Assembly: GCA_049522175.1 (NCBI GenBank)
Contig: JBEKOC010000001.1
Location: forward strand, 137,752-201,751
Direction of reading: 5' to 3'
From: Terracidiphilus sp.
Lineage (GTDB): Bacteria; Acidobacteriota; Terriglobia; Terriglobales; Acidobacteriaceae
DNA: 64,000 nucleotides
The translations under genes and the position numbers were made by a program. Shown one piece after another: positions 3,757-51,663 of this stretch. The stretch's first letter is position 1. Each line of letters starts with the position of its first letter. The notes under the pieces are model-generated. The model did not search any database, was not told where the DNA came from, and saw only the letters and a program-made list of their open reading frames with translations.

Positions 3757-3926
3757 CGCATTCCTCCAAAACAGGGACCAGGAAACAGGGACTAGGGACT
3801 AGGTCGCGGTAGCATCTTTCCGCACAAGCTCAATGTACTGCTATGAACCGCTGGTGACTTATTGTCTGGACTCGCCGCCGATTGCCGCAATGCTCTCATC
3901 CAGTCCCTAGTCCCTAGTCCCTGCCT

Positions 3927-5348
3927 TTAAGACACCGTCGTCTGATTCCCCAGGTTCAGCGCCGCGGCCATCACCGTGTTCAACATCGCAAATACCTGCG
4001 AGGCCGCCTGATAGCTGCGCTCCAGCGTGGTCATCGACGAGGCCTCGTCGTTCAGATTCACGCCGCTGAGCGCATCGTTCTGCGTTTGCAACTGGGTCAC
4101 CGAAGCATTCTGCGCCGTATTCTCCGTCTGCACGTTGGAAACCGTCGAGCCCAGCCTGGCCACAAAACTCGAGTAGTAGTTGGTCGGCGTCTGGCCGTTC
4201 ACAATCGTTTGATTGGCCATGGCAGCCATAGCCGTGGCATTCGAGTTGTCGCCCGTTCCATCTCCCGCGCCGGCGGCGGCGATCTGGTTCGGATCGGTCA
4301 TCACTACGCTCATGCTGGCCGCGCTGCCTGCCACCGCGGTTGGTTGGCTGAAAATGTAGAGTGGATGAGCCGTTGTGCCGGTATTTCCATCAAGGTCTGT
4401 CCCCGCGTTGTTCTGCTGGTTGACCTCTGTGGAGATGCTGTAGGCCAGTTGATCGAGCGCGTTGAGCGCGCTGGGAATGTCCTGATCGCGCGCCATCAGA
4501 TAGCCGCCCAGCGACCCGCCGCCCGTAACCAGTTGCGAGGTAATATCCTGGTTGCCCAAAAAGAAGTCGGTGACCCCGTTCACCATGCCGGTGGTCAACT
4601 GGTAGCTCGTCCCTCCGGAAAGCAACAACTGGCCGGAGGTGGTGGTAATCGCCAGGCCGTTGTTCTCGGTCGTGATCTGGTTGATCCCTATCAACTTTGA
4701 AAGCTGGCTCAGATCCTCCTGGCGCTGGTCTTCGAGCGTTCCCGCGTCGGCGTTGGGCGAGGTGGTTTGAATCTGCTGGTTGAGCTGCGCAATTGCCGAG
4801 GTCAGCGAGTTCACCTGGCTGGTCACCCCGGCTGCCTCCTGGTCCAGAGCCGAACGCTGTGAGTTCAGGCTGGCTGCGGCGTTGGACACGTCCCCGGCCA
4901 GCATGCCTGCCGTGGAGAGCACGCTCTGGCGCAGCGCGTTGTCGGTGGGATTGGCCTCCAGCGACGACAACGAATTGAAAAAACCGGTAATGTCGCTGCC
5001 GATGTCTCCGGCGGTTGAACTGGACGAACCCGAGTCCGGCGTGAACAGCGCCTGCAGCGTATTCAGCGCCGTCAGTCGCGATCCGGAGGCCGAAGCCAGT
5101 TGCTGTTGCTGGTCCAGCCGCGACTCCAGCACGCGGTCCCGCTCGGAGGTCGCGCCCGTCTCCGTCACTCCCTGCCCGATAGAAACTCCATCGATGTTGA
5201 GCGGCTGATTCTCCTGCCAGTTGGGCGTTTCCTCTGTGTAACCGGGAGTATTGGCATTGGCCACGTTGTTGGCCACTACATTCAGCCCTTGCTGATCGGC
5301 GTCCAGAGCCTGCGTCATGATACTGAATGCGGAGTTAATTGTTCCCAT
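3927..5348 (-). CDS. flgK: Flagellar hook-associated protein 1
   Basis: LNVVANNVANANTPGYT N-terminal motif; C-terminal SGVNLNDEASSMTTLERSYQAASQV. Confidence 0.95.
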   Translation of the reverse strand: MGTINSAFSIMTQALDADQQGLNVVANNVANANTPGYTEETPNWQENQPLNIDGVSIGQGVTETGATSERDRVLESRLDQQQQLASASGSRLTALNTLQALFTPDSGSSSSTAGDIGSDITGFFNSLSSLEANPTDNALRQSVLSTAGMLAGDVSNAAASLNSQRSALDQEAAGVTSQVNSLTSAIAQLNQQIQTTSPNADAGTLEDQRQEDLSQLSKLIGINQITTENNGLAITTTSGQLLLSGGTSYQLTTGMVNGVTDFFLGNQDITSQLVTGGGSLGGYLMARDQDIPSALNALDQLAYSISTEVNQQNNAGTDLDGNTGTTAHPLYIFSQPTAVAGSAASMSVVMTDPNQIAAAGAGDGTGDNSNATAMAAMANQTIVNGQTPTNYYSSFVARLGSTVSNVQTENTAQNASVTQLQTQNDALSGVNLNDEASSMTTLERSYQAASQVFAMLNTVMAAALNLGNQTTVS

Positions 5349-5745
5349 GCCCGCTCTCCGTTCGTGCCCACCCGGATGACGGCGGTTCGCGATACTCCAG
5401 CCTCCCCGCGCGCAACTCCCGCAGCCGGTTCATCACATTCAGGTTGGCCCGCGTCGCCTCCAGAACCCTGGCGAAGATCGCCATATCTCCTTCAGCCTCT
5501 TTGCACTCCAGGGCCAGCGATACGCGGTCGGCCGCATTCCCATGCTCCCAATCGCTCTGCATTAGGTCGCGGTTCAGGGCCTGGCAAGAGAGCGCCAACT
5601 CCTCCAGCCGGTCCGCATCCAGCCGCGCCAGCGCCCGCGAAGCTTCAACCACCAGCTCCTTCAGCTTCGGACGCACGCGGCGCTCTCCCATCTCCTGCAA
5701 CGCAATCGCTCCTTGCGCCCCGGCCGGAGCGCTTCCTTTGCCCAT
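5335..5745 (-). CDS. Helical hypothetical protein in the FlgN position (possible export chaperone)
   Basis: Lies between flgM and flgK and overlaps the flgK start; helical, Leu/Ala/Glu-rich, about 136 aa. Confidence 0.55.
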   Translation of the reverse strand: MGKGSAPAGAQGAIALQEMGERRVRPKLKELVVEASRALARLDADRLEELALSCQALNRDLMQSDWEHGNAADRVSLALECKEAEGDMAIFARVLEATRANLNVMNRLRELRAGRLEYREPPSSGWARTESGHGNN

Positions 5746-5755
5746 CCGGCTTCGC

Positions 5756-6046: not shown

Positions 6047-6069
6047 AAACTACTTGCTCCTTGCCGAAT

Positions 6070-6096: not shown

Positions 6097-6097
6097 G

Positions 6098-6508
6098 TCA
6101 TTCATGGGTTTTCATCACGGTATTGCCGTGTAAATTCCCGGTTACCTGGGCGGTTACCTGCCTGTTACTTGCAGTCGTAAGCTGCCGCACGATGCTGTCG
6201 GCAATCCCGAATCCTCCCTGCTCGCTCAACCCGCGTCCCAACGCCTCCGACGCGAACGCTCCCAGCGCCCCGCCCGAGCCAGAGGCCGTGCCGTTATCCT
6301 CCCCATCCAGACTGCTCCCGCTGGTCAACGGCTTCAATAACTCCTGCATCATCTGCGCCTCAAACTCGTGCGCCGCTTTCACTAGCCGGGGCTGCGGCGT
6401 GGCCGCTGGTGTGCCTGTCCCCGTTGCCCCCGTTGCCCCTGCTACCCCCGTTGCCCCCGTTGCCCCCGTTGCCCCCAAACCCGCCGATGTCGCTGCCGTC
6501 GAAAGCAT
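6098..6508 (-). CDS. flgJ: Short FlgJ (rod-binding domain only)
   Basis: LVKAAHEFEAQMMQELLKPL...LSEQGGFGIADSIVRQL rod-binding motif; follows flgI; no muramidase domain. Confidence 0.8.
   Translation of the reverse strand: MLSTAATSAGLGATGATGATGVAGATGATGTGTPAATPQPRLVKAAHEFEAQMMQELLKPLTSGSSLDGEDNGTASGSGGALGAFASEALGRGLSEQGGFGIADSIVRQLTTASNRQVTAQVTGNLHGNTVMKTHE
6419..6476. repeat. 9-bp tandem repeat (CCCGTTGCC) encoding Gly-Ala-Thr repeats in FlgJ
   Basis: About 6 units, one degenerate; translates as GATGATGVAGATGATG. Confidence 0.85.
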
Positions 6509-7689: not shown

Positions 7690-7695
7690 TGAATT

Positions 7696-7747
7696 CCCTA
7701 TTCCCTATTCCCTAGTCCCTATTCCCTAGTCCCTATTCCCTAGTCCC
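7696..7747 (-). repeat. Heptamer tandem array, 8 x (T/C)AGGGA(A/C), filling the flgH-flgI spacer
   Basis: CCC triplets on the + strand every 7 bp from 7696 to 7745. Confidence 0.95.
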
Positions 7748-7753
7748 TGTTTT

Positions 7754-8979: not shown

Positions 8980-9044
8980 TCAGTCCTCCCTGCCAAGAAA
9001 CCAATCCCTGTTCCCTAGTTTCTAGTCCCTGGTCCCTACCCGCT

Positions 9045-9833
9045 TTAGTGGGTCAAATTGTTGACCTGGGAGTACATATCGTCAGCCGCCTTGATGACCT
9101 TGGAGTTCGATTCGTAGGCCCGCTGCGCCAGCACCATCTGCACAAACTCGGTGACCACGTCCACGTTCGAGTTCTCAAGGTACCCCTGCTGCAGCGTCCC
9201 CAAACCCTCGGTTCCTCCGGGGTTGCCCAGCACCGCATCCCCGCTGCTGAGCGTGGCCTGCAACAGGTTCGATCCCATGCTCTCCAAGCCCCCGGGGTTA
9301 GGAAAGGTCGCCAACTGAATCTGGCCCAGCTGCGAAGGGTTCTGCTGCCCCGGCAAGGTGGCGTTGACCACCCCGTACTGGGTGATGGTGACCGCCGTGG
9401 CATTGGCGGGAATCGTAATGGTGGGAATGATCGGGTCGCCGTCGGCGGTCACGATGGTTCCCTGACTGTTGAGTTGGAACTGGCCGGCGCGGGTGTATTG
9501 GATGGTTCCGTCGGGCCGCTGCACCTGAAAGAAGCCACTACCCTGAATGGCCACGTCCAGCGGGTTCGAGGTCTGGTTCAGCTCGCCCTGGGTCATGATC
9601 ACCTCGGTGGCCGCCGGCTTGGTGCCCAGACCGACCTGGAGTCCCGCCGAGACCGTCGACTGGCTCTGCGCTGCCCCCGGCACAACCAGATTCTGGTAGA
9701 CCATGTCCTGAAACTCCAGGCGCAACTGGCGAAATCCGGTGGTCGAGGAGTTGGCCAGGTTGTTGGCGATGGTGTCCAAGTTCAACTGCTGCGCGCTCAT
9801 GCCGCTGGCCGCTGTATACATTGCTCGAATCAT
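9045..9833 (-). CDS. flgG: Flagellar distal rod protein
   Basis: MIRAMYTAASGM...LDTIANNLAN; LENSNVDVVTEFVQMVLAQRAYESNSKVI. Confidence 0.96.
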   Translation of the reverse strand: MIRAMYTAASGMSAQQLNLDTIANNLANSSTTGFRQLRLEFQDMVYQNLVVPGAAQSQSTVSAGLQVGLGTKPAATEVIMTQGELNQTSNPLDVAIQGSGFFQVQRPDGTIQYTRAGQFQLNSQGTIVTADGDPIIPTITIPANATAVTITQYGVVNATLPGQQNPSQLGQIQLATFPNPGGLESMGSNLLQATLSSGDAVLGNPGGTEGLGTLQQGYLENSNVDVVTEFVQMVLAQRAYESNSKVIKAADDMYSQVNNLTH

Positions 9834-10022
9834 TGTGGCTCCTTCGTCGCCAGCTAACAGCTATCAGCTGGCAGCTAACAGTTCTCTGTTGCGGCAAACG
9901 GATTTCAGCGTCCGTTAGCCCGAATTGCCGATACAATCTTCACTACATGTCTCCGACTTCTCATTTCCGGCCACCGGCTATTCATTTCTGTCTGCTGTTA
10001 GCTGTCTGCTGATAGCTGTTTT

Positions 10023-10760
10023 TCACACCTTGGGCAGATCCTCGGTGGCGATTTTGTTGAACTCGTTGTGGAAGACGCTCAGCGCCCGCTGCATCATCTC
10101 GGCCTCGCGCTGCATCAGGACCAGGTTCAGAGACCCCTGGACCAGGCTCTGGTTGGCGGATTCCAGGGCGCCTTGGCGGACCGCGGCGCTCTTTGCCGCC
10201 ACCGGTGCCACTCCCTCGGGCGGAAAATAATGGTTGGCGCCCTCCGGGCTCATCTGCGTTCCGGCGGGAAAGGTAAAGACCCCGATGGTAGCCACCGCGC
10301 CGCCGGCCACCGAGAGCACGCCATCCACGCCCACCGTCACCTCGCCGGGTGGAACGGGAATCCGCTGGCCGGTCGCCGACAGCACTACATCGCCGGAATT
10401 CGTCACCAGCTGTCCGGCCGGGGTGCGATGAAAGCTGCCATCGCGGGTAAAGCGCGGCCCGTTGGGGGTCTGCACCATGAAAAAGCCTTGTCCCTCGATG
10501 GCCATATCGAGTGGATTGCCAGTAACCTGGAGTTCGCCCTGGCCCATGTTGAGCCGGTCGCCTCCCAGCAGGCCATAGTTGTTTACCGTTTGCCCCAACT
10601 GTGAGTCCTGGGCGTCAGGCCCCAGCAGCGCCGAGCGAAAGTACTCCTGCTCGGCCCGGTAGCCGGGGGTCGACGCATTGGCAAGATTGGTGGCCGCAAT
10701 ATCCATGGCCTGGGTACGCGTCACCAGCCCGGTCATCGCCGCATAGTATCCACTGTCCAT
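10023..10760 (-). CDS. flgF: Flagellar rod protein FlgF
   Basis: MDSGYYAAMTG...NLANASTPGYR; TGNPLDMAIEGQGFF; FTRDGSF; upstream of flgG. Confidence 0.9.
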   Translation of the reverse strand: MDSGYYAAMTGLVTRTQAMDIAATNLANASTPGYRAEQEYFRSALLGPDAQDSQLGQTVNNYGLLGGDRLNMGQGELQVTGNPLDMAIEGQGFFMVQTPNGPRFTRDGSFHRTPAGQLVTNSGDVVLSATGQRIPVPPGEVTVGVDGVLSVAGGAVATIGVFTFPAGTQMSPEGANHYFPPEGVAPVAAKSAAVRQGALESANQSLVQGSLNLVLMQREAEMMQRALSVFHNEFNKIATEDLPKV

Positions 10761-10855
10761 CGGCCACCCCACCTTGTGCATGGGAAGGTATTGCAGGTGG
10801 ATGACCGGAAGGGGTGCAGGAGTGATTAGAAGTGCATCATAATTGGATAAAAAAT

Positions 10856-10972
10856 AGGGATTAGGGACTAGGGACTAAGGGACTAGGGACTAAGGGACTA
10901 GGGACTAGGGACTAAGGGACTAGGAAATGGGGGATGGGGATAGTCCCTCCATCCCTTAGTCCCTCGTCCCTG
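10856..10972. repeat. Opposed heptamer arrays (9 AGGGAC-type units, then 4 GTCCCT-type units)
   Basis: Read directly from the sequence; located just after the cheX stop. Confidence 0.95.
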
Positions 10973-10974
10973 CT

Positions 10975-11475
10975 TTATTGCAGGCCATCGCAGATGATGG
11001 TGACTTCAAAGCTGGCGTTGTCGAACTTGAATGTGTGGTGGAGCTTGAACTCGGGAGCCTGCACGTGGATGTTGTAATCCCGCCCGCTGATCACGGTGGG
11101 AATCGACAGGCCGCAGTTGGCCGCCAGTTCCGGCACTTTGCCCTTCCACGCCCCGGCCAGCATATTGCAGATTTCGCCGATCCCGTCTTTGACGGTATCG
11201 TCCACCTCCACGAATTCCATGCCCGTCATGTGCGCGGCTATCTTGATGGCCGTCGAGGCCCCGCTGCGGAAGACGCAGGCCCCGCTCAGCAGGCCGCCAA
11301 AGCCCACCACCGCGGTCACCGACTCCGGCTCTACGTTCTCCACTGCTCCCGAGTAGCGCTGGCAGTCGACCCCCAGCATCATCCTGAAGACCTCCTCCAC
11401 GCTGGCATCCAGATTCCTGGGATCGGAGACCAGATGCACGGACTCCCGCAATGAACACGTCATCGTTCGCTCCAT
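10975..11475 (-). CDS. cheX: Chemotaxis phosphatase CheX
   Basis: VTAVVGFGGLLSGACVF; DGIGEICNMLAG (E-x2-N motif); SIPTVISG. Confidence 0.9.
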   Translation of the reverse strand: MERTMTCSLRESVHLVSDPRNLDASVEEVFRMMLGVDCQRYSGAVENVEPESVTAVVGFGGLLSGACVFRSGASTAIKIAAHMTGMEFVEVDDTVKDGIGEICNMLAGAWKGKVPELAANCGLSIPTVISGRDYNIHVQAPEFKLHHTFKFDNASFEVTIICDGLQ

Positions 11476-11937: not shown

Positions 11938-11961
11938 GCCTGGGCTCCTCCGCTGGTATGC

Positions 11962-11988
11962 CTATCGGCTTTTCCGGTTAATGCTTGA
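11962..11988 (-). promoter_or_regulatory. sigma28-type promoter of cheY-cheX
   Basis: TCAA(G)-N15-GCCGATAG on the minus strand, 25 nt upstream of the cheY ATG. Confidence 0.7.
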
Positions 11989-12021
11989 GAATCCTTGCCC
12001 CATCGTCCCCCGGTCTCCGCT

Positions 12022-14692: not shown

Positions 14693-14733
14693 TCTTGTCT
14701 ATCCCTGTTCCCTAGTCCCTGTTCCCTGTTTTC

Positions 14734-15591
14734 TTAGCGCCGCTCCCGTTCCGCCGCTTTTTGCGTGCGCGGCCGCTCAAATGCCCCGCGCGCCGCCAGG
14801 TCCTTGAGCGCGCCCCGCAGATGCACCACCGCCGAAGCATGCACCTGCGAGACTCGCGACTCGACCACCCCCAGCGCCAAACCGATTTCGTGCATGGTCA
14901 TCTCCTCGTAGTAGTACAGGCTCATCACCAGGCGCTCCCGGTCAGGCAGATTCTGAATGGCCTCGGCCAGCCTCTCTTCCAGCTCGCCCCGGAGGCAGCA
15001 AAACAGCGGGTCTTCCTCCGGGCGGCCCGGAATATAGGCCAGCTCCTCCTCACCCGAGTCCTCGTTGCGCTCCATGTGCAGGGTGCCGATCTCCAAGCCC
15101 TTCAAGTCCCCCAGCAACTGCTGGTACTCGTCCAGTTCCAGCGCCATCTCCACGGCCACCTCGGCCTCGTCCGGCGTGTGTCCCATCCGGGCCGACAACA
15201 CCCGGATGGCCTCTTCCACCGCGCGGCCCTTCCGGCGCAGTTCGCGCGGACTCCAGTCTAGCGTTCGCAGGCTGTCCAGAATCGCTCCTCGGATGCGGAA
15301 CTGCGCATAGGATCGGAACTGAACCTTTTTGGCCGGGTCAAATTTCGAAAAGGCGTCCATCAAGCCAACCACCCCGGCCGAGACCAGGTCCTCGATGTCC
15401 ACATGCTGGGGCAGCCGCTCGTGAATGCGGCGGGCCAGAAAGCGCACGATCGGCAGGTGCTCAAGCAGCACCCGCTCCTGCTCGCTGGTCAACACCGGCA
15501 GCTGGGCGCCGCTGGGCGGATAGCCGTCCCCCGGGACACTGCGCCGCGGCGCCCTCTGGCTGGCCACCGTATTGACCGCTTCGCTCCCCAT
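14734..15591 (-). CDS. fliA: RNA polymerase sigma-28 factor
   Basis: DLVSAGVVGLMDAFSKFDP...YAQFRIRGAILDSLRTLDW; LYYYEEMTMHEIGLALGVVESRVSQ. Confidence 0.95.
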   Translation of the reverse strand: MGSEAVNTVASQRAPRRSVPGDGYPPSGAQLPVLTSEQERVLLEHLPIVRFLARRIHERLPQHVDIEDLVSAGVVGLMDAFSKFDPAKKVQFRSYAQFRIRGAILDSLRTLDWSPRELRRKGRAVEEAIRVLSARMGHTPDEAEVAVEMALELDEYQQLLGDLKGLEIGTLHMERNEDSGEEELAYIPGRPEEDPLFCCLRGELEERLAEAIQNLPDRERLVMSLYYYEEMTMHEIGLALGVVESRVSQVHASAVVHLRGALKDLAARGAFERPRTQKAAERERR

Positions 15592-21032: not shown

Positions 21033-21076
21033 CGTTCGACTTCCCCCTAATCCCTAGTCCCTACGTCCCTGCCTTT

Positions 21077-21451
21077 TCACACCAGCCGTGTCAAGCGCAC
21101 CGCCAGATGTGTATCAACCACTTCAAACTCGCTCCATGCCAGTCGCACGGCGCCCGTGGCCAGCGGCATATCCGCGCCGTGAGCCCATTGCGTCTCAATC
21201 ACCTGGCCCGGCTCCAAAGTGAGCAGGTTGCGCACCCGAAAATCCCGCACCGGTATGGCCACTTCCAGCTCCACCGGAAGCTTCGCAACCGGCGCAGTGA
21301 GCTTGATGACCACCTCTTCCGGAGAGTGCAGCGTTGGCACCAGCGCATGTTCGGCGGCGGTCTGTGTTACTGCCGGCAGATCGGGCGCGCGCGGCGGCGC
21401 GTTGAGCGGCTGCGCGCTGGCCGGCGGCGGCATTGGGTGAGCAGAGGCCAT
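21077..21451 (-). CDS. Second FliN/SpoA-domain protein
   Basis: LPVELEVAIP...LLTLEPGQVIET...EFEVVDTHLAVRLTRL. Confidence 0.8.
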   Translation of the reverse strand: MASAHPMPPPASAQPLNAPPRAPDLPAVTQTAAEHALVPTLHSPEEVVIKLTAPVAKLPVELEVAIPVRDFRVRNLLTLEPGQVIETQWAHGADMPLATGAVRLAWSEFEVVDTHLAVRLTRLV

Positions 21452-23586: not shown

Positions 23587-23628
23587 ACGGCGAGTGGGGC
23601 ATTCTGCTGTTCCCTGTTCCCTGCTTTT

Positions 23629-28783: not shown

Positions 28784-29788
28784 ATGCCCAAATACTCGAT
28801 TGTCATTCCTTTTCACAATGAAGAGGAGAACGTGACCGTCTTATACGCGCGCCTGAAGCAGGTGATGGAGCAGGTGGGCGAGAGTTTTGAGCTGGTGCTG
28901 GTGGACGACGGCTCCAACGACCGCACCTGCAAGCTGATGGGCGAGATTGCCGCGGTCGACAGCCGCGTGCTGATCATCAAACTGCGCCGCAACTTCGGGC
29001 AGACCTCGGCTCTAGCCGCGGGCTTTGACCACGCCACGGGCGAGTTCATCCTGGCCATGGACGGCGACCTTCAGCACGATCCCAGCGAGATTCCCAATTT
29101 TCTGGAAAAGCTGGAAGAGGGCTACGATGTGGTCTCCGGCTGGCGCAAGGAGCGGGTTGACAATTTTGTCATGCGCCGAATTCCATCACGCTGCGCCAAC
29201 TGGCTGATGGCCAAGCTCTCCGGAGTGGACATCCACGACTTTGGCACCACCTTCAAGGCTTATCGCCGCGAGGTCATCCAGAATATTCCGCTCTACGGCG
29301 AGATGCACCGCTTCATCCCCGCGCTGGCCAGTTGGTATGGCGTATCGATCTGCGAAATCCCCATCAGCAACGTCCCCCGCGAACGCGGCAAAAGCCACTA
29401 CGGCATCGGGCGCACTTTCGGAGTTTTCTTTGATCTACTGACCATCCGCTTTCTGCTCAAGTACATGAATCGGCCGCTGCACTTTTTTGGCGGCTTTGGC
29501 ATGTTGGGCATCCTGGCGGGCAGTTGCATGGCGTCCACCTTGCTGGGGATGAAGATCCTTAATCCGCAACTGGACGTGATGCGCCACCATGGTCCGATGT
29601 TTGTCATTGGTTCAGTGCTGATTGTCGCCGGCATCCAGTTGCTGGCCATCGGCCTGCTGGGCGAGTTGCAAGTGCGCCTCTTCTACGCCGGACGGCAGCG
29701 CACGCCGTATTCCATCGAGAGCATGGTTCGCCTGCGCGTGTCGCAAGAGCCGCACGTGCTGTCGCAGGAAACAGGGATCAGGGAATAG
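28784..29788 (+). CDS. GT2 glycosyltransferase (ArnC/GtrB-like, C-terminal TM helices)
   Basis: SIVIPFHNEEEN; VDDGSND; RNFGQTSAL; MDGDLQHDP; EMHRFIP. Confidence 0.92.
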   Translation: MPKYSIVIPFHNEEENVTVLYARLKQVMEQVGESFELVLVDDGSNDRTCKLMGEIAAVDSRVLIIKLRRNFGQTSALAAGFDHATGEFILAMDGDLQHDPSEIPNFLEKLEEGYDVVSGWRKERVDNFVMRRIPSRCANWLMAKLSGVDIHDFGTTFKAYRREVIQNIPLYGEMHRFIPALASWYGVSICEIPISNVPRERGKSHYGIGRTFGVFFDLLTIRFLLKYMNRPLHFFGGFGMLGILAGSCMASTLLGMKILNPQLDVMRHHGPMFVIGSVLIVAGIQLLAIGLLGELQVRLFYAGRQRTPYSIESMVRLRVSQEPHVLSQETGIRE

Positions 29789-29855
29789 GGATTAGAAAGG
29801 CATTAAGCCCCACCCCTTGCCCTCGCACGCCTCCAGGGTTCATGCTGAAGCTGTG

Positions 29856-31893: not shown

Positions 31894-32430
31894 TGTCTTC
31901 TTCCTTCCTTATCCTTTCACCAAGTACACGAAAGGATCGAGCAACTGGCGAAAAAACGACTTTTTGACTAAAACGACTCCCTCTTGGGCGAAAAACCGGA
32001 TTTTTCCGGTGATTTTCCGAAGGCCAAAAATCTCACGATGTGGTACATATCGGCCAGATGAATTACGGAAACTATTGATTCCATGATGGTTCATATAATC
32101 TGCAAGGTTTTGAAAATAAAATAGGGGGGGTGGGGGGTCGGGTGGATTTTAGGGGAAGAAACGGGGAAAATGGACCAGGGACCATGACTGGGATTGCGCG
32201 CGTTGGGGATTGTACGGTGGTCATAGGGGCCTCGCATTTGCGACTACTTCTATTGTGCACCGCAAGCGGGAAATAATCTGCAAGCACCTGCGGTGCGGCC
32301 AACTGCTCGCTATTCGCTCGCTTGAGGTTCGTGGTTTGCCAGGTCCCCAAATGCGATGGACCTGGAGCACCCGCGCGTAACGGATGGGGCACGGAACTGA
32401 TCACTGACCACTGTTCACTGACCACTGCCT

Positions 32431-33429
32431 CTACGGAATCTGCGCCATGGGCAGCTCGAGCACCGGGGTCCGCTTGCCGTCCTTCACCACGTAGGCCAAT
32501 ATCCCGTGAAAGTTCTCCCGCAGCCCCGGCTGCGCCTTCAGGAGCGCGCTCAGCACGGCAGTCGCTTCCGTCCGCTGTGCCGCCGGATCCGTGATTCCAA
32601 TCGATTCGTAGACCACGCCCAGGTCGGCATGCAGCATTGTCGGGTCCAGCCGCATGGCGTCGATCTTCCAGGCGCGCGGACCATCCGGAAGCGTCAAGGG
32701 AAACGCGTCCTGCGGAGAATTTTTAATCGCCCTCTGCTCGCTCGTGAGTTTTTCCAGGTTCGGCGAAGAGAGAATATCCACCGGCAGCAGGAGCATCCGT
32801 GCCGTGTCGTAGGCGTACCAGGCGGCCCAGGATTGATCCGCACTGGCCAGTTCGCGGGCGCGCGTCCACCACCGTACGCCGTCTTGCCCGTCGAGGACAC
32901 CGGGCCGCACCGTCAGGCCGCCCAGCTTCCAGCTATTGGTGCGGCCGTCCCAGACCAGGATGAAGCCCAGCTGGCCAGCGTAGGGCGTTCCAATCGAATC
33001 GGCCAGTACTACGGCATACCGGCCTGGCGGCAGCGCCGGTATGGTCAGGGTCACGGTCATCGAACCGCTGGCGCTGGTGCAGAAAAACTGCGCGTCAGCG
33101 GACGCGGCCAGGCTGGTTGCGTCCAGCAGGTAAAGGCTGCGCAGTTGAATCTGCCCGTCCTTCATCAGCGACGCGGAAGACTCGACCACCCCTCGCATTT
33201 TCTCCCAGTCCTCCTGGGTCACTTCGGGCAGCAGAGCAGCCTTGAGCGCAACAAAATCCTGCTCGGCCACGGCCACGGCCAGCCGTCCCCCGGCAGTGGC
33301 AAGCGCATCGCGGTCCTGCGGCAGCATCGCGGCCTGCGTGGTGCAATTTGTGGCGCTCGCCGGCATTGGCGCGGCCAAACCTGCCAATAGAATCGCCGGC
33401 GCGGCAAAAACCTTCCAGCAGAAACGCAT
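32431..33429 (-). CDS. Secreted hypothetical protein
   Basis: MRFCWKVFAAPAILLAGLAAPMPASATNCTTQ signal peptide; long ORF with coding-like composition. Confidence 0.7.
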   Translation of the reverse strand: MRFCWKVFAAPAILLAGLAAPMPASATNCTTQAAMLPQDRDALATAGGRLAVAVAEQDFVALKAALLPEVTQEDWEKMRGVVESSASLMKDGQIQLRSLYLLDATSLAASADAQFFCTSASGSMTVTLTIPALPPGRYAVVLADSIGTPYAGQLGFILVWDGRTNSWKLGGLTVRPGVLDGQDGVRWWTRARELASADQSWAAWYAYDTARMLLLPVDILSSPNLEKLTSEQRAIKNSPQDAFPLTLPDGPRAWKIDAMRLDPTMLHADLGVVYESIGITDPAAQRTEATAVLSALLKAQPGLRENFHGILAYVVKDGKRTPVLELPMAQIP

Positions 33430-33618
33430 CGGTTGAGCCCTCCCCGGCGCGCAAAATCTCTTGTGTGAGCGTCCGCCGGTCACTGTTAGTCTAGTACAGT
33501 AGAGCGGCAACGGAATGCCGTGTCCAGACAGCGCTTCCGCGCTCGGCAGCTTCTGCCGGATGACAATCATCGGAACCCGGCGCAAATATTTGACCGCCGG
33601 AAACAGGGAATGGTTATT

Positions 33619-34386
33619 ATGCACACTGACCTCCAGTTCAACTCGCCTGTTTCACTCGGAATTTTACGCGTGCGTGGAGTTGCACTGCGAGCGCTTCTCG
33701 TCGTGATTCTGGGCGGGGCGCAGATGATGAGTGCGCAAACGCCCGCTGCCGCTGTTCCCTCTAACCTGTCATCCCCGGCGCACAAACCGACTCATCCGCA
33801 CAAGCGTACGGCCCAGGCTCAGTCCCCGGCAGCGCAGGCAGCGGCTGCGCCGGCAACACCTCCCGAGCCCGAGGTTCCAAAGTGGCCCGCCAACGAAAAA
33901 CCCGCTCCAGCCACGGTCACCTGGGACAGCCAGGGCCTGCGCATTAACGCCCTCAATTCCAGCCTGGCGCAAATTCTGCAAGATGTATCCACCGCCACCG
34001 GCGCAACAGTGGAAGGATTCGATACTGACCAGCGAGTCTTTGGCGCCTACGGCCCCGGCCCGGCGCGTGACGTGCTCAGCCAGCTTCTGCAAGGCTCCGG
34101 CTACAACGTCGTCCTTGTCGGAGACCAGGGCCAGGGAACCCCGCGCGAGATCGTGCTCAGTGTTCGCCGCGCCGGAACCCCAACGCCGGCGGCCAAATCC
34201 GCCCCTGCCAGCGACGAAGACGCCGACACGGAGGAGCAACAACCGGCTCACCCGCCCGTCCAACCCGGCTTCCCTCCCGGCAAGCAGCCGCGCACCCCGC
34301 AACAGATGCAACAGCAGATGTTGCAGCAGCGCCCGCAGCCGGGACAACCGCAGCCCGGGCAACCGCCCAGTAATCCGCAGAACTAA
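33619..34386 (+). CDS. Secreted hypothetical protein with STN/secretin-N-like domain and Pro/Gln tail
   Basis: Hydrophobic leader; LRINALNSSLAQILQDVSTATG...LSQLLQGSGYNVV; QP-rich C-terminus; start uncertain. Confidence 0.6.
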   Translation: MHTDLQFNSPVSLGILRVRGVALRALLVVILGGAQMMSAQTPAAAVPSNLSSPAHKPTHPHKRTAQAQSPAAQAAAAPATPPEPEVPKWPANEKPAPATVTWDSQGLRINALNSSLAQILQDVSTATGATVEGFDTDQRVFGAYGPGPARDVLSQLLQGSGYNVVLVGDQGQGTPREIVLSVRRAGTPTPAAKSAPASDEDADTEEQQPAHPPVQPGFPPGKQPRTPQQMQQQMLQQRPQPGQPQPGQPPSNPQN

Positions 34387-34677: not shown

Positions 34678-34840
34678 TACGGTGAAAATTGAATTGCGAA
34701 ACAATTATGAGTGAAGGAGTGAATGAGTGAATTAGTGCAAACTGAGCTATTCTCGCTTCACACATTTACTTCTTCACTTTTTCACATCTTCACTCTTTCA
34801 CTACCAAACACTCTCGATACGAGGGCACAAAATTTCACTC

Positions 34841-37840
34841 ATGCCCATTACTCACATCTCGGTGCGCGGGGCGCGCCAGCATAATTTGCGCGACATCAAT
34901 GTGCGCATCCCGCGCAACACGCTCACGGTGGTCACCGGCCTCAGCGGCTCTGGCAAGAGCTCGCTGGCCTTCGACACTATCTATGCCGAGGGCCAGCGCC
35001 GCTACGTGGAGACGCTATCGGCCTACGCGCGCCAGTTTCTTGACCAGATCGAGCGGCCCGACGTGGACTCCATCGAGGGACTCTCGCCGGCCATCTCCAT
35101 TGAGCAGAAGACCACCAGCCGCAGCCCTCGCTCCACGGTGGGCACCATCACCGAAATTTACGATTACCTGCGCCTGCTCTACGCTTCGATCGGCACGCCC
35201 CACTGCCCCAACTGCGGAAGGCCCATCGCCCACCAATCGGCGGATCAGATTGTCCAGCGCATATTGGAGCAGGGCCGCGGCGAGCGCGTCACCGTGATGG
35301 CGCCCATCGTCCGCGGACGCAAGGGCGAGTTCAAGGAGCTGCTTGACCAGATTGACCGGCAGGGCTTTCGCGTCCGCGTGGACGGCGAGTTGCGCGATCT
35401 CTCCGAGCCGGTTGTGCTCGACCGCCGCAAAAACCACACCATCGAAGCGGTCGTGGACCGCATCCTGCTCAAGAACCCGCCCGCCGACGCGCCCCCGCTT
35501 CCCCCCGGCAAACCCTCCATCGAACGCCGCCTCGAAGCCGCCGTGGCCAAGGCTCTGCAACTGGCCAACGGACTGGTTTTGGTCGCCGTTGCGGGCGGCC
35601 AGAATACTCAGGAGCAGTTGTTCTCCTCCTCCATGGCCTGCCCCGATTGCGGCCTGGACGTGCCCAAGCTCGAGCCGCGCAGCTTCAGCTTCAACTCCGC
35701 CTTCGGCGCTTGTCCGGAGTGTCACGGCCTGGGCTCGCTCTATGATCTCGATCCCGCCAAGGTCATCACCGACTGGTCCAAGCCGCTGCTGGACGGCCTC
35801 GGCCCCGGTTCCACCTCGCAGTACCTCATCAGGCTCGTCAATCTGGCCGCCGACCGCTACAAGATCGACCTTAAAACGCCCTTCGAGGAGCTGCCCCCGC
35901 GCCAGCAGCATCTTCTGGTCTACGGCCCGCCCAAAGGCGAAGGCCCGCGCACCGGCTTTCACGGCGTTCTGAGCTTTCTGCGCGACAGCATTGAAGAGGC
36001 GCGCAGCGATTCCTATCGCGAATCGATGATGGCTTACATGTCCGCCACGCCCTGCCCGGTCTGCCGCGGCAAGCGTCTGCGCCCGGAGTCGCTGGCGGTC
36101 AAGATCGGCGGCCTCTCCATCGCCGACTTCACTGCTCTGCCGCTCAACGGTGCACTGTCCGCGGCCATCAATCTGAACTTCACGGAGCGCCAGTCACTCA
36201 TTGCCGAGCGCATCCGCCACGAGATCGCCGAACGGCTGGAGTTTCTCTGCGCCGTGGGCCTCACCTACCTCTCGCTGGACCGCAACGCAGCCACACTCAG
36301 CGGCGGCGAAGGCCAGCGCATCCGCCTGGCCACGCAGATCGGCTCACGATTGCGTGGTGTGCTCTATGTTCTAGACGAACCTTCCATCGGCCTGCATCAG
36401 CGCGATAACAACCGGCTGATTCAGGCCCTGGAAAGGCTGCGCGACCTGGGCAACACCGTGCTGGTGGTGGAGCACGACGAAGAAACCATCCGCCACGCCG
36501 ATTACATTCTCGACCTCGGTCCCGGAGCCGGCCGTCTGGGCGGCCAGGTAGTTGCGCAGGGAACGCCCGCGGAGATCATGGCCTGTCCGGAATCGCTCAC
36601 CGGGCGCTATCTCTCCGGCGCATCCGGAATGTTGCAGCGCGCCCGCCCGCGGCCCCTGGCCGGCAAATGGCTCACCATCACCGGCGCGAGAGAGCATAAT
36701 TTGCAGGACGTGACGATTCGCATTCCGCTGGGCGTGATGACCCTGGTCACCGGCGTCAGCGGATCGGGCAAGAGCACGCTCATCAACGACATTCTGTACC
36801 GCTCGCTGGCCAAGAGCATCTATGGCTCGCGCGAGGAGCCCGGCGCGCACGACACCATCACCGGCGCAGAGCAGATCGACAAGGTGGTGCGCATCGATCA
36901 GTCGCCCATCGGCCGCACACCGCGCTCCAACCCGGCCACCTACACCCAGGTCTTCTCGCCTATCCGCGACCTCTTCGCCATGCTGCCTGAGGCTCGCGAA
37001 CGCGGCTACAAGCCCGGCCGATTCAGCTTCAATGTCGGCGGTGGCCGCTGCGAGGCTTGCCAGGGCGACGGCCAGCGGCGCATCGAAATGAACTTCATGC
37101 CCGACGTTTACGTGCAGTGCGAGATCTGCAACGGCCGCCGCTACAATCAGGAAACGCTGGCCGTAAAATTCCACGGTTATTCTATCGCCGACATTCTCGA
37201 GCTGACCATCGAAGACGCGCTCACCGTACTCACCGACGTTCCACAGGTGCGCCAGAAGCTGCAAACTTTGGTGGACGTGGGCCTGGGTTACGTCCATCTG
37301 GGCCAGAGTGCAACCACTCTCTCCGGCGGCGAGGCGCAGCGCATGAAGCTGGCCCGCGAACTGTCGAAGCGCCAGACCGGCCGAACTCTTTATTTGTTGG
37401 ACGAGCCCACCACCGGCCTGCACTTCGACGACGTGCGCAAGCTGCTCGAAGTCCTTCACCGGCTCACCGACCTGGGCAACACGGTCATCATCATCGAGCA
37501 CAATCTCGACGTAATTCGTAACGCTGACTGGATTCTCGACCTCGGCCCCGAGGGCGGCGAAGACGGCGGCCGCATCATCGGCCAGGGCCGTCCCGCAAAG
37601 ATTGCAGCCACTCCCGGCTCTTACACCGGCCAGTTTCTCAAGCGCTATTACTCCTCTAGCAGCGGCCGTCTTGCTCCCACCGGACCCGACGATGATCCCG
37701 CCGGCATCGATTCAACCGTCATACTGGATGCACCTTCGATTGCACAGGTTGTAGCGGACGAGCCCGCCAGGCGCTCAACCGCAAAGAAGACGGCCACAGA
37801 AATATCCGCAACCCGCAGAAAGAAGACGGAGCTGCCATGA
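34841..37840 (+). CDS. uvrA: Excinuclease ABC subunit A
   Basis: GARQHNL; [23 protein letters not shown]; two ABC cassettes; [12 protein letters not shown]; Zn fingers. Confidence 0.98.
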
Positions 37841-38787: not shown

Positions 38788-38856
38788 AAAAGGCAGGGAA
38801 CAAAAAATCGAAATCTCTGCCCGCAACTAACGGTTAAGATTCATGAAGAGGTAACC

Positions 38857-49325: not shown

Positions 49326-50778
49326 GAAAACTCCTCTGCCGAACTCCGCCAAAAATGTCCTTCCTCTCAAGGAACGCATGAAGATTCTGCGCCGTCACAT
49401 GCCGGAGCTGGACCCTGTCGTGCGCAGCCGCAACTTTGAAGAAGTCAACCAAGGTTTGCCCACGGCCGACGCCCTCACCGAAGCCTCGCGTTGCATCGAG
49501 TGCGCCAAGCCGGGCTGTATCGTCGATTGCCCGGTAGGCGTCAAGGTCAAGGAAGTCATTGCCCTGATCTGCTGCGGCGACTTTCTTGCCGCTGCCGCCA
49601 AGCTGCGCGAGGACAATTCGCTGCCGGCCATCACCGGCCGCGTCTGCCCGCAGGAGAACCAGTGCGAGGGCGGATGCATTGTGGGCAAGAAGGGCCAGCC
49701 GGTGGCCATCGGCAACCTGGAGCGGTTTATCGCTGATTACGAGCGCATGAGCGGCAAGCTGGGCCTGCCCGCCAACGCGCCTGCGACCGGCAAGAGCGTG
49801 GCCATCGTCGGCAGCGGTCCGGCAGGGCTCTCAGCTGCCGGTGACCTCATCCAGAAGGGCCATCGCGTGCGTGTCTTTGAGGCCCTGCACGAGTTGGGCG
49901 GCGTTCTGGTCTACGGTATTCCGGAGTTTCGCCTGCCCAAAGCCATCGTGCGAGGCGAGGTGGACAACCTGCGCCGCATGGGCGTCGAGTTCGAAACCAA
50001 CGTGGTGGTCGGCAAGAGCGTTACCCTCGACGAGCTGATGAACGAGGAACACTACGACGCGGTTTTTGTGGCCACCGGCGCGGGACTGCCGGTCTTCCTC
50101 AGCGTCCCCGGCGAGCACTTCAACGGCGTCTACTCGGCCAACGAATTTTTGACGCGCGTGAACCTGATGCGCGCCTACAATGCCGCTGAGTACGATGAAC
50201 CGGTCTACGACTGCCGCGATCGCGACGTGATTGTGGTCGGTGGAGGCAACACCGCCATGGACGCCGTCCGCACCTCGCGGCGACTGGGCGCGCGGACAGC
50301 GACGCTCGTGTATCGCCGCTCCGAGGCCGAGATGCCCGCCCGCGCTGAAGAGGTGAAGCACGCGCGAGAAGAAGGAATCGAGTTCCGCATGTTGACCAAC
50401 CCCGTTGAGTTCCTCGGCGACGAGAAGGGCTGGCTCACCGGCGCGCGCTGCGTGCGCATGGAGTTGGGCGAGCCCGATGCCAGCGGCCGCCGCCGCCCGG
50501 TCGAGGTCAAAGGATCTGAATTTGTTTTGCCCGCCAGCGTAGTTATCATCGGCGTCGGCACCACCGCCAATCCGCTGATCCAAAGCACTACGCCCGACCT
50601 GGCCACCAACAAGTGGAATTACATCGTAGCTGATGAGACGTCCATGCGCACCAGCAAGCGCGGCGTCTTTGCCGGCGGAGACATCGTCACCGGCGGTGCA
50701 ACAGTAATCCTGGCCATGGGCGCGGGGCGCAAGGCCGCAGCCTCCATCCACGAATTTCTTACCAGCGGCGTGTGGTAG
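49318..50778 (+). CDS. nfnB: NfnB/SudA-type (GltD-like) FAD/4Fe-4S subunit
   Basis: CIECAKPGCIVDCP; GRVCPQENQCEGGC; GSGPAG; GGGNTAMD; AGGDIVTG; no gltB adjacent. Confidence 0.85.
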   Translation: MPEKTPLPNSAKNVLPLKERMKILRRHMPELDPVVRSRNFEEVNQGLPTADALTEASRCIECAKPGCIVDCPVGVKVKEVIALICCGDFLAAAAKLREDNSLPAITGRVCPQENQCEGGCIVGKKGQPVAIGNLERFIADYERMSGKLGLPANAPATGKSVAIVGSGPAGLSAAGDLIQKGHRVRVFEALHELGGVLVYGIPEFRLPKAIVRGEVDNLRRMGVEFETNVVVGKSVTLDELMNEEHYDAVFVATGAGLPVFLSVPGEHFNGVYSANEFLTRVNLMRAYNAAEYDEPVYDCRDRDVIVVGGGNTAMDAVRTSRRLGARTATLVYRRSEAEMPARAEEVKHAREEGIEFRMLTNPVEFLGDEKGWLTGARCVRMELGEPDASGRRRPVEVKGSEFVLPASVVIIGVGTTANPLIQSTTPDLATNKWNYIVADETSMRTSKRGVFAGGDIVTGGATVILAMGAGRKAAASIHEFLTSGVW

Positions 50779-50930
50779 AAGGCGATTTGGGTAAACTGAG
50801 AGTCCTATTCTCAAAACGGTAGAACTTGAGATGTGCCCATGCTGTGCTAAAATACGGGGCAATCGCCATATATCATTTTTCTTAAAGCGGGTAGGAGTTG
50901 AGTTGCAGGGTTGAAAGGAGAACCCAGCGC

Positions 50931-51368
50931 ATGAACCAAAATCTCTACATCAAGGCCGTTTTCGCGGTTATCGTGATTCTGCTTTTGGTGATCGCTTATA
51001 CATATCTTCGCCCGAATGCGCCGGCCAAAGGCGTTCAAGGCGCTCATGTTCCAGCCCAAGCCCAGCAATCCAGCCAGCAGATACCGCAAGCAGCGCCACA
51101 GGCGACCACTCCGACCGGCGGGAATACTTATGCAAAAGCAGCTACAGCCACTCCCACGGGTGGGAATACTCATGCAAAAGCAGCTACAGCCACTCCGACG
51201 GGTGGGAATACTCATGCAAAAGCAGATACAACCACTCCCACGAAATGTTCGCTTGGCCAGATTCCTGCACCAAATGATCTCCCTGAGTTAAAAGGGGCAT
51301 GTATGGACAAAATGAAACTTATTCGTTACAAATATATGGAAAAAATAAATAAGAAAATGGGCAAATAA
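50931..51368 (+). CDS. AT-rich membrane-anchored orphan protein with three 14-aa repeats
   Basis: AAAGGAG RBS; N-terminal TM; (TPTGGNT[YH]AKAxTx)3. Confidence 0.7.
   Translation: MNQNLYIKAVFAVIVILLLVIAYTYLRPNAPAKGVQGAHVPAQAQQSSQQIPQAAPQATTPTGGNTYAKAATATPTGGNTHAKAATATPTGGNTHAKADTTTPTKCSLGQIPAPNDLPELKGACMDKMKLIRYKYMEKINKKMGK
51105..51242 (+). repeat. 42-bp tandem repeat, 3 units plus a partial
   Basis: Units begin at 51105, 51147, 51189 and 51231. Confidence 0.92.
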
Positions 51369-51663
51369 AAAGGCAGATGAAACAGTCACCCTCTCCGGTG
51401 CCGTGGCCTGTCCCATATGGGACCTCATCAAGTTCGTCTGCTTTATCTTCGGCCAATCCGCCGCCACAATGAACCACACTTTCAAGAAGAGTAGAACTTG
51501 AGACGCTTCCCAGTACACTGAAAACAAGGGACTTGCGCGTCTCTGGATTCAGGCTTAAATGAAGCGTTGAACCCGCCGCTTCACACTGCGTGCCTTGTAG
51601 TATTTTTTACTCTCTGCGGAAAGCGGAGTCGTATTCCCTATTCCCTATTCCCTAGTCCCTCGT

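Follow-up and report, generated by a model that had tools for sequence, protein, structure and literature searches.

In the 64,000-nt window analysed here, the whole stretch taken from contig JBEKOC010000001.1 of the soil acidobacterium Terracidiphilus sp. (GCA_049522175.1), tandem heptamers of the form (YAGGGAH)n stand directly after stop codons and read G-rich on the sense strand. What are these arrays, and why do they follow the ends of genes? We propose, with a probability of about 55%, that they are one family of genome-wide heptamer-repeat intergenic inserts, made up of IVS-like hairpin inserts and half-elements.

Heptamer arrays of the window

A sequence-only reading had listed ten post-stop loci, and all are as it described them, in coordinates and, through Pfam, in gene names: FlgK, FlgH, FlgG, CheX, a sigma-28-type FliA, FliN, homoserine dehydrogenase, an NtrC-type activator, GT2 and Rce1/CPBP. 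Chance is excluded as the origin of the YAGGGAH arrays: the window contains 24 YAGGGAH dimers, where 100 shuffles gave 0.00. The AGGGA-family features, in window coordinates like all array positions below, are:

3902..3923, minus strand: flgK 5' G-rich arm, CAGGGAC TAGGGAC TAGGGAC, 3 nt past the flgK stop codon (3927-3929)
3769..3803, minus strand: flgK-side 3' arm, GTCCCTA units C-rich on the sense strand, ending CTGTTTT
7693..7749, minus strand: flgH solitary array, 8 units, CAGGGAC then TAGGGAM
9004..9038, minus strand: flgG interrupted AGGGA array, 2 + 2 units, past the flgG stop (9045-9047)
10943..10972, minus strand: cheX 5' G-rich arm, 2 nt past the cheX stop (10975-10977)
10855..10924, minus strand: cheX-side 3' arm, about 9.6 units, C-rich on the sense strand, then a T6 run
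14701..14730, minus strand: fliA solitary array, 4 units, between the fliA stop (14734-14736) and the next ATG (14692)
21045..21070, minus strand: fliN-like solitary array, about 4 units past the fliN-like stop (21077-21079)
23607..23623, minus strand: hom array, two CAGGGAA units, 5 nt past the hom stop in a convergent spacer
29765..29795, plus strand: GT2 array, overlapping the 3' end of the GT2 ORF
38794..38800, plus strand: CPBP/Rce1-like single unit, CAGGGAA, 6 nt past the stop (TGA AAAAGG CAGGGAA)
51632..51660, minus strand: NtrC-type activator solitary array, 4 units, 2-3 nt past the stop (51664-51666)

The eight minus-strand post-stop arrays are all G-rich on the sense strand and start 2-8 nt past the stop. 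The reported overlap in GT2 is real, its stop codon (29786-29788) being the TAG of the third array unit, TAGGGAT; the CPBP unit, rightly read as single, has the usual purine leader and is a seed or relic, not an array. The claim that the arrays always follow gene orientation fails at 3769-3803 and 10855-10924, which are C-rich on the sense strand. These two are hairpin 3' arms, and their 5' arms are post-stop arrays: 3902-3923 and 3769-3803 fold as RNA into a 19-bp stem (MFE -71.1, z -3.5), with a GGAGG ribosome-binding site and then the ATG at 3756 directly downstream, and 10943-10972 with 10855-10924 forms a long hairpin (fold z -4.5). The flgH array begins 4 nt past the flgH stop, finishes 4 nt ahead of the flgI ATG (7689), has no partner arm and folds weakly (z -1.9); the flgH-flgI spacer holds AGGGA or AGCT-type arrays in congeners.

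AGGGA is one among several heptamer families (AGCT-, CAGTG- and CAGT-type) with a common architecture. Two further types in the window, absent from the sequence-only reading, obey the same post-stop rule:

9988..10020, minus strand: CAGCTAT-type 5' arm, AAAA CAGCTAT CAGCAGA CAGCTAA ..., directly past the stop of ORF 10023-10781
9851..9881, minus strand: CAGCTAT-type 3' arm, ...CTGTTAGCTGCCAGCTGATAGCTGTTAGCTG, ending 17 nt ahead of the flgG ATG
32396..32427, minus strand: CAGTGGT/CAGTGAA-family array, 3 nt past the stop of ORF 32431-33624

The two CAGCTAT-type arms pair with each other (fold z -4.6). Genome-wide, non-coding arrays number 151 at period 7 but 6 at period 6 and 17 at period 8. Arrays are about threefold enriched in this flagellar and chemotaxis window.

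Placement and strand across the genome

Stop proximity and strand bias both extend to the whole genome, for which gene coordinates came from our own crude gene caller. In co-directional spacers, 41 arrays are G-rich and 18 C-rich on the sense strand (p = 0.004; crude gene calls), and the first G-array of such a spacer starts no more than 15 nt from the upstream stop in 33 of 39 cases, where uniform placement in the same spacers gives 7.7 expected and at most 16 in 2000 trials. Stop-side arrays begin within 12 nt of the stop in 57 of 76 cases, and start-side arrays end at a median of 33 nt ahead of the start; CAG-type arrays prevail on the stop side and CTG-type arrays on the start side (Fisher p = 2e-6), and 73 of 75 stop-adjacent arrays are YAG-first on the sense strand. 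Arrays hug the stop even where 80-130 nt of the spacer lie free downstream, lie anywhere from 4 to more than 400 nt from the next start, and show the same geometry 8 nt past one tRNA 3' end. Their density is 0.10 per kb in divergent spacers and 0.32 per kb in co-directional ones.

A signal specific to stop codons and linked to translation or to a protein was one reading offered earlier, and we consider it quite improbable. Its candidate forms are a three-frame TAG backstop, Shine-Dalgarno-like AGGGA sites that hold terminating ribosomes for re-initiation, and periodic (UAG N4)n or GGA sites for an RNA-binding protein of the HutP, TRAP or CsrA type. A TAG every 7 nt does place stops in all three frames, short spacers put the last AGGGA 8-12 nt ahead of the next ATG, HutP binds UAG repeats with 4-nt spacers and hence a 7-nt period, and the enrichment in the flagellar window would suit such a signal. 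However, HutP and CsrA homologues were not found in the genome, the Shine-Dalgarno sequence is the canonical GGAG/GAGG (about 4-fold enriched, GGGA only 1.7-fold), some arrays are CAG-only and contain no TAG, and neither the wide range of distances to the next start, nor the array beside the tRNA gene, nor the identical behaviour of families that are not G-rich fits such a signal.

The placement and strand rule is itself not new, since Rehm et al. 2015 (PLoS One, PMC4692102) give the same placement for near-identical repeats, (GGGANTN)n or GGGAATC in Xanthomonas and GGGGA(C/T)T in Nostoc PCC 7120. As described there, those repeats share with ours a GGGA-core heptamer, roughly 100-190 arrays per genome, an intergenic position mostly between aligned ORFs and rarely between divergent ones, convergent inverted pairs, a preference for about four units, and copy number that varies between close relatives. 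Our arrays differ in their phylum (Acidobacteriota), in their unit (TAGGGAC/CAGGGAA, not GGGAATC), and in sharing their layout with other heptamer families of the same genome, among which AGGGA is only one.

The hypothesis of Rehm et al. would have (GGGAMYA)n with at least four G-tracts fold as an RNA or non-template-DNA G-quadruplex (G4) directly past the stop, where it would block exonucleases or modulate transcription or translation. The GGG tracts here are 4 nt apart, many arrays have at least four units (7693-7749, 14701-14730, 21045-21070, 51632-51660), unit counts level at 3-4 and then fall (33, 36, 9), and a G4 would account for the sense-strand G-richness of solitary arrays; Rehm et al. 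report that DNA oligonucleotides of the Xanthomonas and Nostoc repeats form G4s in vitro (PMC4692102). Yet the CTAGCTY, CAGTGGT and CAGCTAT families, which lack G-tracts, match the AGGGA arrays in stop proximity, in polarity and in a plateau at 3-5 units (TAGC 17/23/8, CAGT 18/17/9), so that none of these features is G4-specific, and the family-independent plateau weakens the G4 reading. Arrays of 2-3 units are also common, the stem competes with a G4 in paired elements, and Rehm et al. found no regulatory role (PMC4692102). We regard a G4 as an unlikely explanation of the arrays.

Paired arms, possible half-elements and proposed turnover

The recurrent architecture is a stop, a purine leader, a CAG-first (YAGNNNN)n array of about 3-5 units and a unique core, often followed by a complementary array ending in CTG and then a ribosome-binding site. 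AGGGA pairs run from G-rich arm to C-rich arm in 11 of 11 cases, and pairs of all families keep this polarity 28:2; arms sharing a spacer come from a single family in 25 of 26 cases, and among 22 neighbouring array pairs in congeners, 15 match in inverted orientation (1.3 at random). Folding gives long stems for paired arms (z -3.5 to -4.6). Weighing against an insert, cores that carry no gene are unique and without PF05635 remnants, and neither a target-site duplication nor a recombinase was found for these elements. In orthologous spacers of congeners, stop positions are conserved with or without an array, and array copy number varies at every spacer. The site upstream of flgG (9851-9881) has an empty orthologue in genome L007, and across congeners that one orthologous spacer is occupied by seven different unit families. 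Tight or promoter-bearing spacers never carry arrays.

This variation also bears on a simpler possibility, that the arrays are functionless, slippage-prone simple repeats (the LSSR class of Mrazek et al. 2007, as summarised in PMC4679880) surviving only where harmless, in the stop-to-RBS gap of compact operons. Variable copy number, array-free tight and promoter-bearing spacers, depletion between divergent genes (0.10 vs 0.32 per kb) and the standing of heptamers as the commonest long simple-repeat class in many bacteria are all as this account expects. It is nonetheless improbable: slippage alone gives no fixed CAG...CTG polarity, and it leaves unexplained the matched inverted arms, the exchange of unit families at a given site, stop-hugging despite free sequence downstream, and the tight PF05635 link described below.

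Under the insert reading, a complete element would comprise a short purine leader, a CAG-first 5' arm (YAGNNNN)n of typically 3-5 units, a unique core, and a complementary 3' arm ending in CTG, often with a T-run, placed exactly in the gap that runs from a gene end, as a rule a stop codon but in one case a tRNA 3' end, to the following gene's ribosome-binding site or promoter. Such an insert would be a palindrome whose YAG/G-rich arm is the 5' arm on both strands, which would make the stop-adjacent array G-rich on the gene's sense strand in either orientation. The arms would pair in the transcript and thereby extrude the insert as a 21-35-bp stem-loop, so that the stop would stay close to the ribosome-binding site that follows, and the stem would be long enough for RNase III; elements may be replaced by others at the same permissive sites. 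The arrays may act at the RNA level through stem extrusion, an RNase III site or a G-quadruplex. Most stop-adjacent arrays of the AGGGA (26 of 36) and CAGT (12 of 15) families lack a complementary arm in their spacer, so hairpin extrusion cannot explain the post-stop arrays themselves. Solitary arrays, the AGGGA-family majority, would most simply be half-elements whose stop-side arm survives, a status that we assume; left-arm-only spacers outnumber right-arm-only ones 30:8, and an additional selective or mechanistic bias is therefore needed.

PF05635 genes and related systems

In the fullest form proposed for the insert, a PF05635 gene would lie in the loop, as in protein-coding rRNA IVSs. PF05635 is the 23S-rRNA-IVS-protein or Avd-like family, a small four-helix-bundle gene. 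Tandem arrays flank each of the four PF05635 genes in this genome, as two-sided inverted arms in three cases, and both flanks carry arrays at 28 of 33 PF05635 loci from other genera of the bacterial family. The corresponding figure for all genes called in this genome is 2.1%. The CAGTGGT family lacks a cassette here, a point against the proposal. Across phyla, an array occurs on 72% of PF05635 flanks and 18% of control windows, and 96 of 115 such flank arrays have period 7; a Xanthomonas vasicola homologue of XCC0516 has (CGGGAAT)4.4 17 nt upstream.

Between the two readings offered earlier, the evidence favours a repeat-seeding mobile process over a post-transcriptional signal tied to stop codons, because heptamer families unrelated to one another obey the rule, an array beside a tRNA 3' end has the same geometry, the fixed palindromic polarity of paired elements makes a "sense-strand" rule automatic, congeners hold different unit families in one orthologous spacer, and arrays co-occur with PF05635 cassettes.

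Several known systems offer parallels. The S23p/PF05635 23S rRNA IVSs of Coxiella and Leptospira (Warrier et al. 2016, PMC4990558) likewise have terminal inverted repeats around a PF05635 ORF, a stem of about 28 bp, extrusion from a functional RNA (here only a proposal) and a sporadic distribution regarded as selfish; in Coxiella, the 28-bp terminal stem around the S23p ORF is cut by RNase III. Unlike them, the inserts described here lie in mRNA spacers, once beside a tRNA gene, and not in 23S helices (this assembly contains no rRNA), their arms are tandem heptamers, most copies are gene-less and many one-armed, and RNase III cleavage is only predicted. REP/BIME and REPIN-RAYT elements of Gammaproteobacteria are also short, dispersed post-stop repeats, often in inverted hairpin pairs, with few copies of a dedicated, repeat-flanked gene whose presence the repeat load tracks; their units are 20-40-nt palindromes, not tandem heptamers, and RAYT is an HUH Y1 transposase, whereas the four-helix-bundle protein PF05635 has no known motif of a nuclease or transposase. 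The TAACTGA repeats of marine Beggiatoaceae, Cyanobacteria and Bacteroidetes (MacGregor 2015, PMC4679880) and cyanobacterial STRR are tandem intergenic heptamers, orientation-biased with respect to neighbouring ORFs and patchy across phyla, but in Beggiatoaceae TAACTGA sits for the most part immediately before start codons and is forward-oriented (PMC4679880). These repeats also have another unit, and no hairpin pairing is emphasised for them. STRR1 is CCCCAGT, or GGGGACT on the other strand, one base from AGGGACT.

The PF05635 link is an addition of the present analysis, and the available part of Rehm et al. 2015 (PMC4692102) makes no mention of it. In 61 genomes, one per genus, PF05635 copy number correlates with array load (Spearman rho 0.73; all co-occurrence figures are uncorrected for phylogeny), and the 11 genomes that lack PF05635 stand at background load (median 5 vs 142). 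PF05635 would act as the trans-acting partner of the elements. What is new here is that heptamer arrays flank PF05635 genes and that, across genomes, array load tracks PF05635.

AGGGA arrays after stop codons in the window and across the genome

The window spans C1:137752-201751 of a 3.65-Mb assembly (59% G+C) that belongs to Terracidiphilus (Acidobacteriaceae) by its FlhA relatives, which rule out the cyanobacterial origin that STRR-like units had prompted us to consider. Genes were called from codon usage with a caller trained on this genome, giving 2630 genes over 80% of its length, with exact stops and approximate starts. In the window, the pattern YAGGGAHYAGGGAH forms 24 dimers versus 0.00 in shuffles, and Tandem Repeats Finder recovers the same arrays of the AGGGA family, (YAGGGAH)n. 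The ten array loci named in the sequence-only reading are as it described them, with gene names backed by Pfam, and the GT2 gene terminates at the TAG of a repeat unit. The pattern is genuine and departs strongly from random expectation, but it was over-generalised on one point: arrays were said always to follow gene orientation, which fails at 3769-3803 and 10855-10924, where the sense strand carries GTCCCTA units. These two arrays are the 3' arms of hairpins in which post-stop arrays are the 5' arms (fold z -3.5 and -4.5). An Rfam scan of the window matched only a tRNA.

Genome-wide, there are 125 arrays of at least two NAGGGAN units. Between co-directional genes, the sense strand of merged arrays is G-rich in 41 cases and C-rich in 18 (p = 0.004), and the spacers that hold them divide into 30 with G-rich arrays only, 9 with both and 8 with C-rich arrays only. 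The first G-rich array starts within 15 nt of the stop codon in 33 of 39 cases (median 6 nt), compared to 7.7 under random placement in the same spacers and at most 16 in 2000 trials. A genome-wide scoring of stop distance and strand, as the sequence-only reading had proposed, thus finds both biases, and the observation is valid well beyond the window. For arrays that are C-rich on the sense strand, the median distance from array end to the next start is 47 nt, and array pairs within 600 nt are convergent in 11 cases and divergent in none.

The spacers of the window are about three-fold enriched in arrays, with 8 of the 143 array-bearing spacers in a stretch that makes up 1.75% of the genome. 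The flagellar and chemotaxis part (1-22000) has five of these eight, and this operon is array-rich in close congeners too; one of them (L001) has nine AGGGA arrays in 22 kb. The window also holds 3.3 tandem copies of a 42-nt unit (CCACTCCCACGGGTGGGAATACTCATGCAAAAGCAGCTACAG, 51106-51242), with an internal palindrome CCCACGGGTGGG, in the long spacer adjoining an NtrC-type gene and with no relation to the heptamers. A 9-nt repeat (CCCCGTTGC, 6.4 copies, 6419-6476) overlaps long ORFs on both strands and is probably a proline/glycine-rich coding repeat.

CsrA, suggested by the GGA motifs and the flagellar context, was rejected on the finding that PF02599 matches nothing in the genome above noise. 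The AGGGA core does not read as a Shine-Dalgarno sequence either: the genome's own is GGAG/GAGG, and GGGA is just 1.7-fold enriched upstream of starts. The HutP site is matched by (UAG N4)n; a HutP-type binder was set aside for this genome, which has no PF09021 homologue.

AGGGA arrays fall within the (GGGANTN)n definition of Rehm et al. (2015), that is, tandem heptamers of at least two units in which a GGGA core is conserved and positions 5 and 7 vary. That paper (PMC4692102) counts about 185 such arrays in each Xanthomonas genome, reports GGGGAYT arrays in Nostoc as well, places the arrays chiefly between aligned ORFs and rarely between divergent ones, counts 70-75 convergent paired sites per genome, and describes a preference for four units with lengths that vary between species. 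It reports G-quadruplex formation in vitro and identifies no function. The two repeat classes have in common an excess in non-coding DNA, a preference for aligned ORFs, depletion between divergent genes, proximity to stops and convergent pairs. The placement rule is therefore already published for the Xanthomonas and Nostoc repeats, and what is new is the extension of a published but unexplained class of post-stop, G-rich heptamers to Acidobacteriota. Other heptamers are treated by MacGregor 2015 (PMC4679880) and in the LSSR work summarised there. The arrays here fit the heptamer class of LSSRs (Mrazek et al. 2007, as outlined in that summary), with units of 5-11 nt repeated beyond chance, dominated by heptamers and non-coding.

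A layout shared by heptamer families

AGGGA is one of several heptamer families with the same architecture and polarity. By period, the non-coding tandem arrays of the genome number 151 at 7 nt, 6 at 6 nt and 17 at 8 nt, and only 15 period-7 arrays are coding. Period-7 density falls from 0.32 per kb in co-directional spacers to 0.19 in convergent spacers and 0.10 in divergent ones. The families include AAGCTAG (34), ACTAGGG (33), AATAGGG (19), ACCACTG (15), ACAGTGG (8) and others, and YAG is present on one or both strands in all but 2 of the 166 period-7 arrays. A typical spacer, taken in the sense direction, reads stop codon, purine leader of 0-6 nt, CAG-first (YAGNNNN)n, unique core, (NNNNCTR)n, ribosome-binding site and start codon, with a final CTG, often CTGTTTT, closing the 3' arm. 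Across families, 57 of 76 stop-side arrays start no more than 12 nt after the stop, and the median gap between the end of a start-side array and the start codon is 33 nt. CAG-type arrays take the stop side and CTG-type arrays the start side (Fisher p = 2e-6); 73 of 75 stop-adjacent arrays read YAG-first, and in nine of these the initial TAG doubles as the stop codon. Placement follows the same rule whatever the sequence family. At C22:550-822, an AGCT-family array occupies the space between the genes for tRNA-Thr and tRNA-Gly, and its CAG-first arm begins 8 nt past the tRNA-Thr 3' end, so that the boundary rule is not specific to stop codons.

In close pairs, a 5' YAG arm precedes its 3' complement rather than the reverse in 11:0 cases for AGGGA and 28:2 for all families. 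Such a paired element reads alike on both strands, which makes the sense-strand rule automatic for pairs; the rule carries real information for solitary arrays only, which lack a complementary arm in the same spacer. Most stop-adjacent AGGGA and CAGT arrays are solitary (26 of 36 and 12 of 15), and a hairpin is thus not the whole explanation for these. Among AGGGA spacers with a single arm, it is the stop-side arm in 30 and the start-side arm in 8. Where pairs do form, the stem might be extruded or processed by RNase III. Intrinsic termination was rejected as an explanation: a consensus scan gave 15 hits versus 13.9, no excess, and flagged a single arm (9994-10018), and loops are long in most elements. 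Upstream of a 999-aa ORF (34841-37840), inverted octamer arrays, (ATGAGTGA)n at 34707-34737 and (CTTCACTN)n at 34756-34802, form an 8-nt version of the heptamer-arm design.

Unit numbers bear on the G-quadruplex reading raised by the Xanthomonas work. Counts of GGGA arrays plateau at three to four units and then fall (33, 36, 9), and the same plateau appears for TAGC (17, 23, 8), CAGT (18, 17, 9) and CAGC (8, 10, 3) arrays; control 4-mers give no arrays of at least three units. Since the plateau is common to families without G-tracts, it probably reflects the class of element rather than G-tracts, and the independence of placement from family further weakens a G-quadruplex explanation.

Turnover at orthologous spacers

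We compared the flagellar region across 80 relatives. Arrays are present in close Terracidiphilus genomes and fade with distance. Some spacers, tight or promoter-bearing, never hold any array; others are filled in nearly every congener with differing copy number and unit family. Within one genome, neighbouring arms match in inverted orientation in 15 of 22 pairs versus 1.3 at random. The spacer at 9834-10022 holds seven unit families across eight genomes and is empty in relative L007, where it reads TGA CGGCAACGAAGGAGTCAAA ATG. Its filled orthologues carry an insert with CAG...CTG termini between the stop and a conserved GCGAC.GAAGGAG, and comparison of filled and empty sites reveals no target duplication. 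Whether or not an array is present, the ORF upstream keeps the same final residue; the stops that arrays follow are therefore native ones.

A MITE was rejected on the missing target duplication and the uniqueness of the cores, which match one another only between two related PF05635 cassettes; one further core matched short stretches of AGCT arrays only. The idea that one family spreads locally along an operon was likewise rejected, as neighbouring spacers hold the same family in 17 cases versus 12.9 expected, which is not significant (p = 0.12). Two spacers of L001 combine families: following the stop comes an array of one family and, beyond it, an array or a hairpin of another.

An 84-nt spacer (11938-12021) with a sigma-28-type -10 motif, GCCGATAG (about 11962-11969, minus strand), is conserved, alignable in nine congeners and never arrayed, unlike neighbouring spacers. 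A REP-like GC-rich hairpin (CCACCCCAGCGAGCA...TCGCTCGCCGGGGACCCCGG) is nested within AGGGA arrays in the fliN-like and cheX spacers of L001 and a second relative, L002, and occurs in one array-bearing spacer of the present genome (C8:106084-106257). Elhai et al. are said to have described, in 2008, small dispersed repeats embedded in Nostoc heptamer arrays.

Association with PF05635 genes

The genome has four genes of the PF05635 family, and tandem arrays flank all of them, as inverted arms on both sides in three.

PF05635 genes and their flanking arrays
C22, 59028-59342: PF05635 gene with AGGGA arms
C16, 42151-42465: PF05635 gene with AGGGA arms
C21: PF05635 gene with arms of the octamer GAGTTAGC
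C5: PF05635 gene with an AAGCTAG arm on one side only

The association extends beyond this genome. Of 33 PF05635 loci, these four included, taken from about 30 Acidobacteriaceae genera, 28 have period-7 or period-8 arrays on both flanks, compared to 2.1% of all genes called in this genome. The sole PDB relative is 2GSC, XCC0516 of Xanthomonas campestris. Of the relatives of XCC0516 in 80 genomes of many phyla, 46 are flanked by arrays on both sides and 23 on one; 72% of flanks bear arrays, compared to 18% of control windows placed 800 nt farther away, and 96 of the 115 flanking arrays have period 7. Located 17 nt upstream of the Xanthomonas vasicola homologue is (CGGGAAT)4.4, the published GGGAATC unit. 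With each of 61 genera of the family represented by one genome, and uncorrected for phylogeny, PF05635 copy number correlates with the number of YAG-phased four-unit windows (Spearman 0.73), whose median is 5, or background, in the 11 genomes lacking PF05635 versus 142. Similarity between PF05635 proteins tracks similarity between arm units weakly (rho -0.20).

These elements invite comparison with the intervening sequences (IVS) of 23S rRNA, with which they share terminal inverted repeats that form a stem around a PF05635 ORF (3/4 here, 28/33 in the family, 46/80 across phyla). Their arms, about 21-35 nt, are close to the 28-bp Coxiella IVS stem (PMC4990558). They differ in location: an IVS sits in a 23S helix (9, 25 or 45), and the elements here lie between protein genes or beside tRNA genes. 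No rRNA was detected in the assembly. REPIN-RAYT and REP-BIME systems differ in pairing imperfect palindromes of 20-40 nt with an HUH Y1 transposase (RAYT) whose own gene the repeats flank, in place of tandem 7-mers flanking PF05635. Gene-less spacers are not decayed PF05635 cassettes, as a profile search of six-frame spacer fragments returned the four intact genes only. PF05635 is considered Avd-like (PMC10053308); a reverse transcriptase partner was rejected, with no PF00078 match in the genome.

The reading that best accommodates these observations is that the arrays are IVS-like heptamer-arm inserts, together with half-elements represented by the solitary arrays, at a permissive site between gene end and ribosome-binding site, and that they are tied to PF05635; they may be mobile. 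We tentatively propose, at a probability of roughly one in three, that heptamer arrays and PF05635 genes constitute one system, with a pentameric four-helix-bundle protein (Avd-like, PDB 2GSC) as the partner acting in trans on (YAG N4)n repeats. The protein would perhaps bind these repeats with one heptamer per protomer, which could explain the plateau at 3-5 units. It might also propagate the repeats. By analogy with REPINs and RAYT, or with UAG repeats and HutP or TRAP, the hundreds of gene-less post-stop arrays would be its non-autonomous sites.

Our literature search found no paper tying PF05635 to heptamer repeats, nor a description of such a system in the searchable literature. If true, the proposal would bear on the unexplained heptamers of Xanthomonas, cyanobacteria (STRR) and other phyla, and likewise on the ORF that 23S rRNA intervening sequences carry. 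If the association is causal, it would provide heptamer simple-sequence repeats with a partner protein, and the ORF of rRNA intervening sequences with a role.
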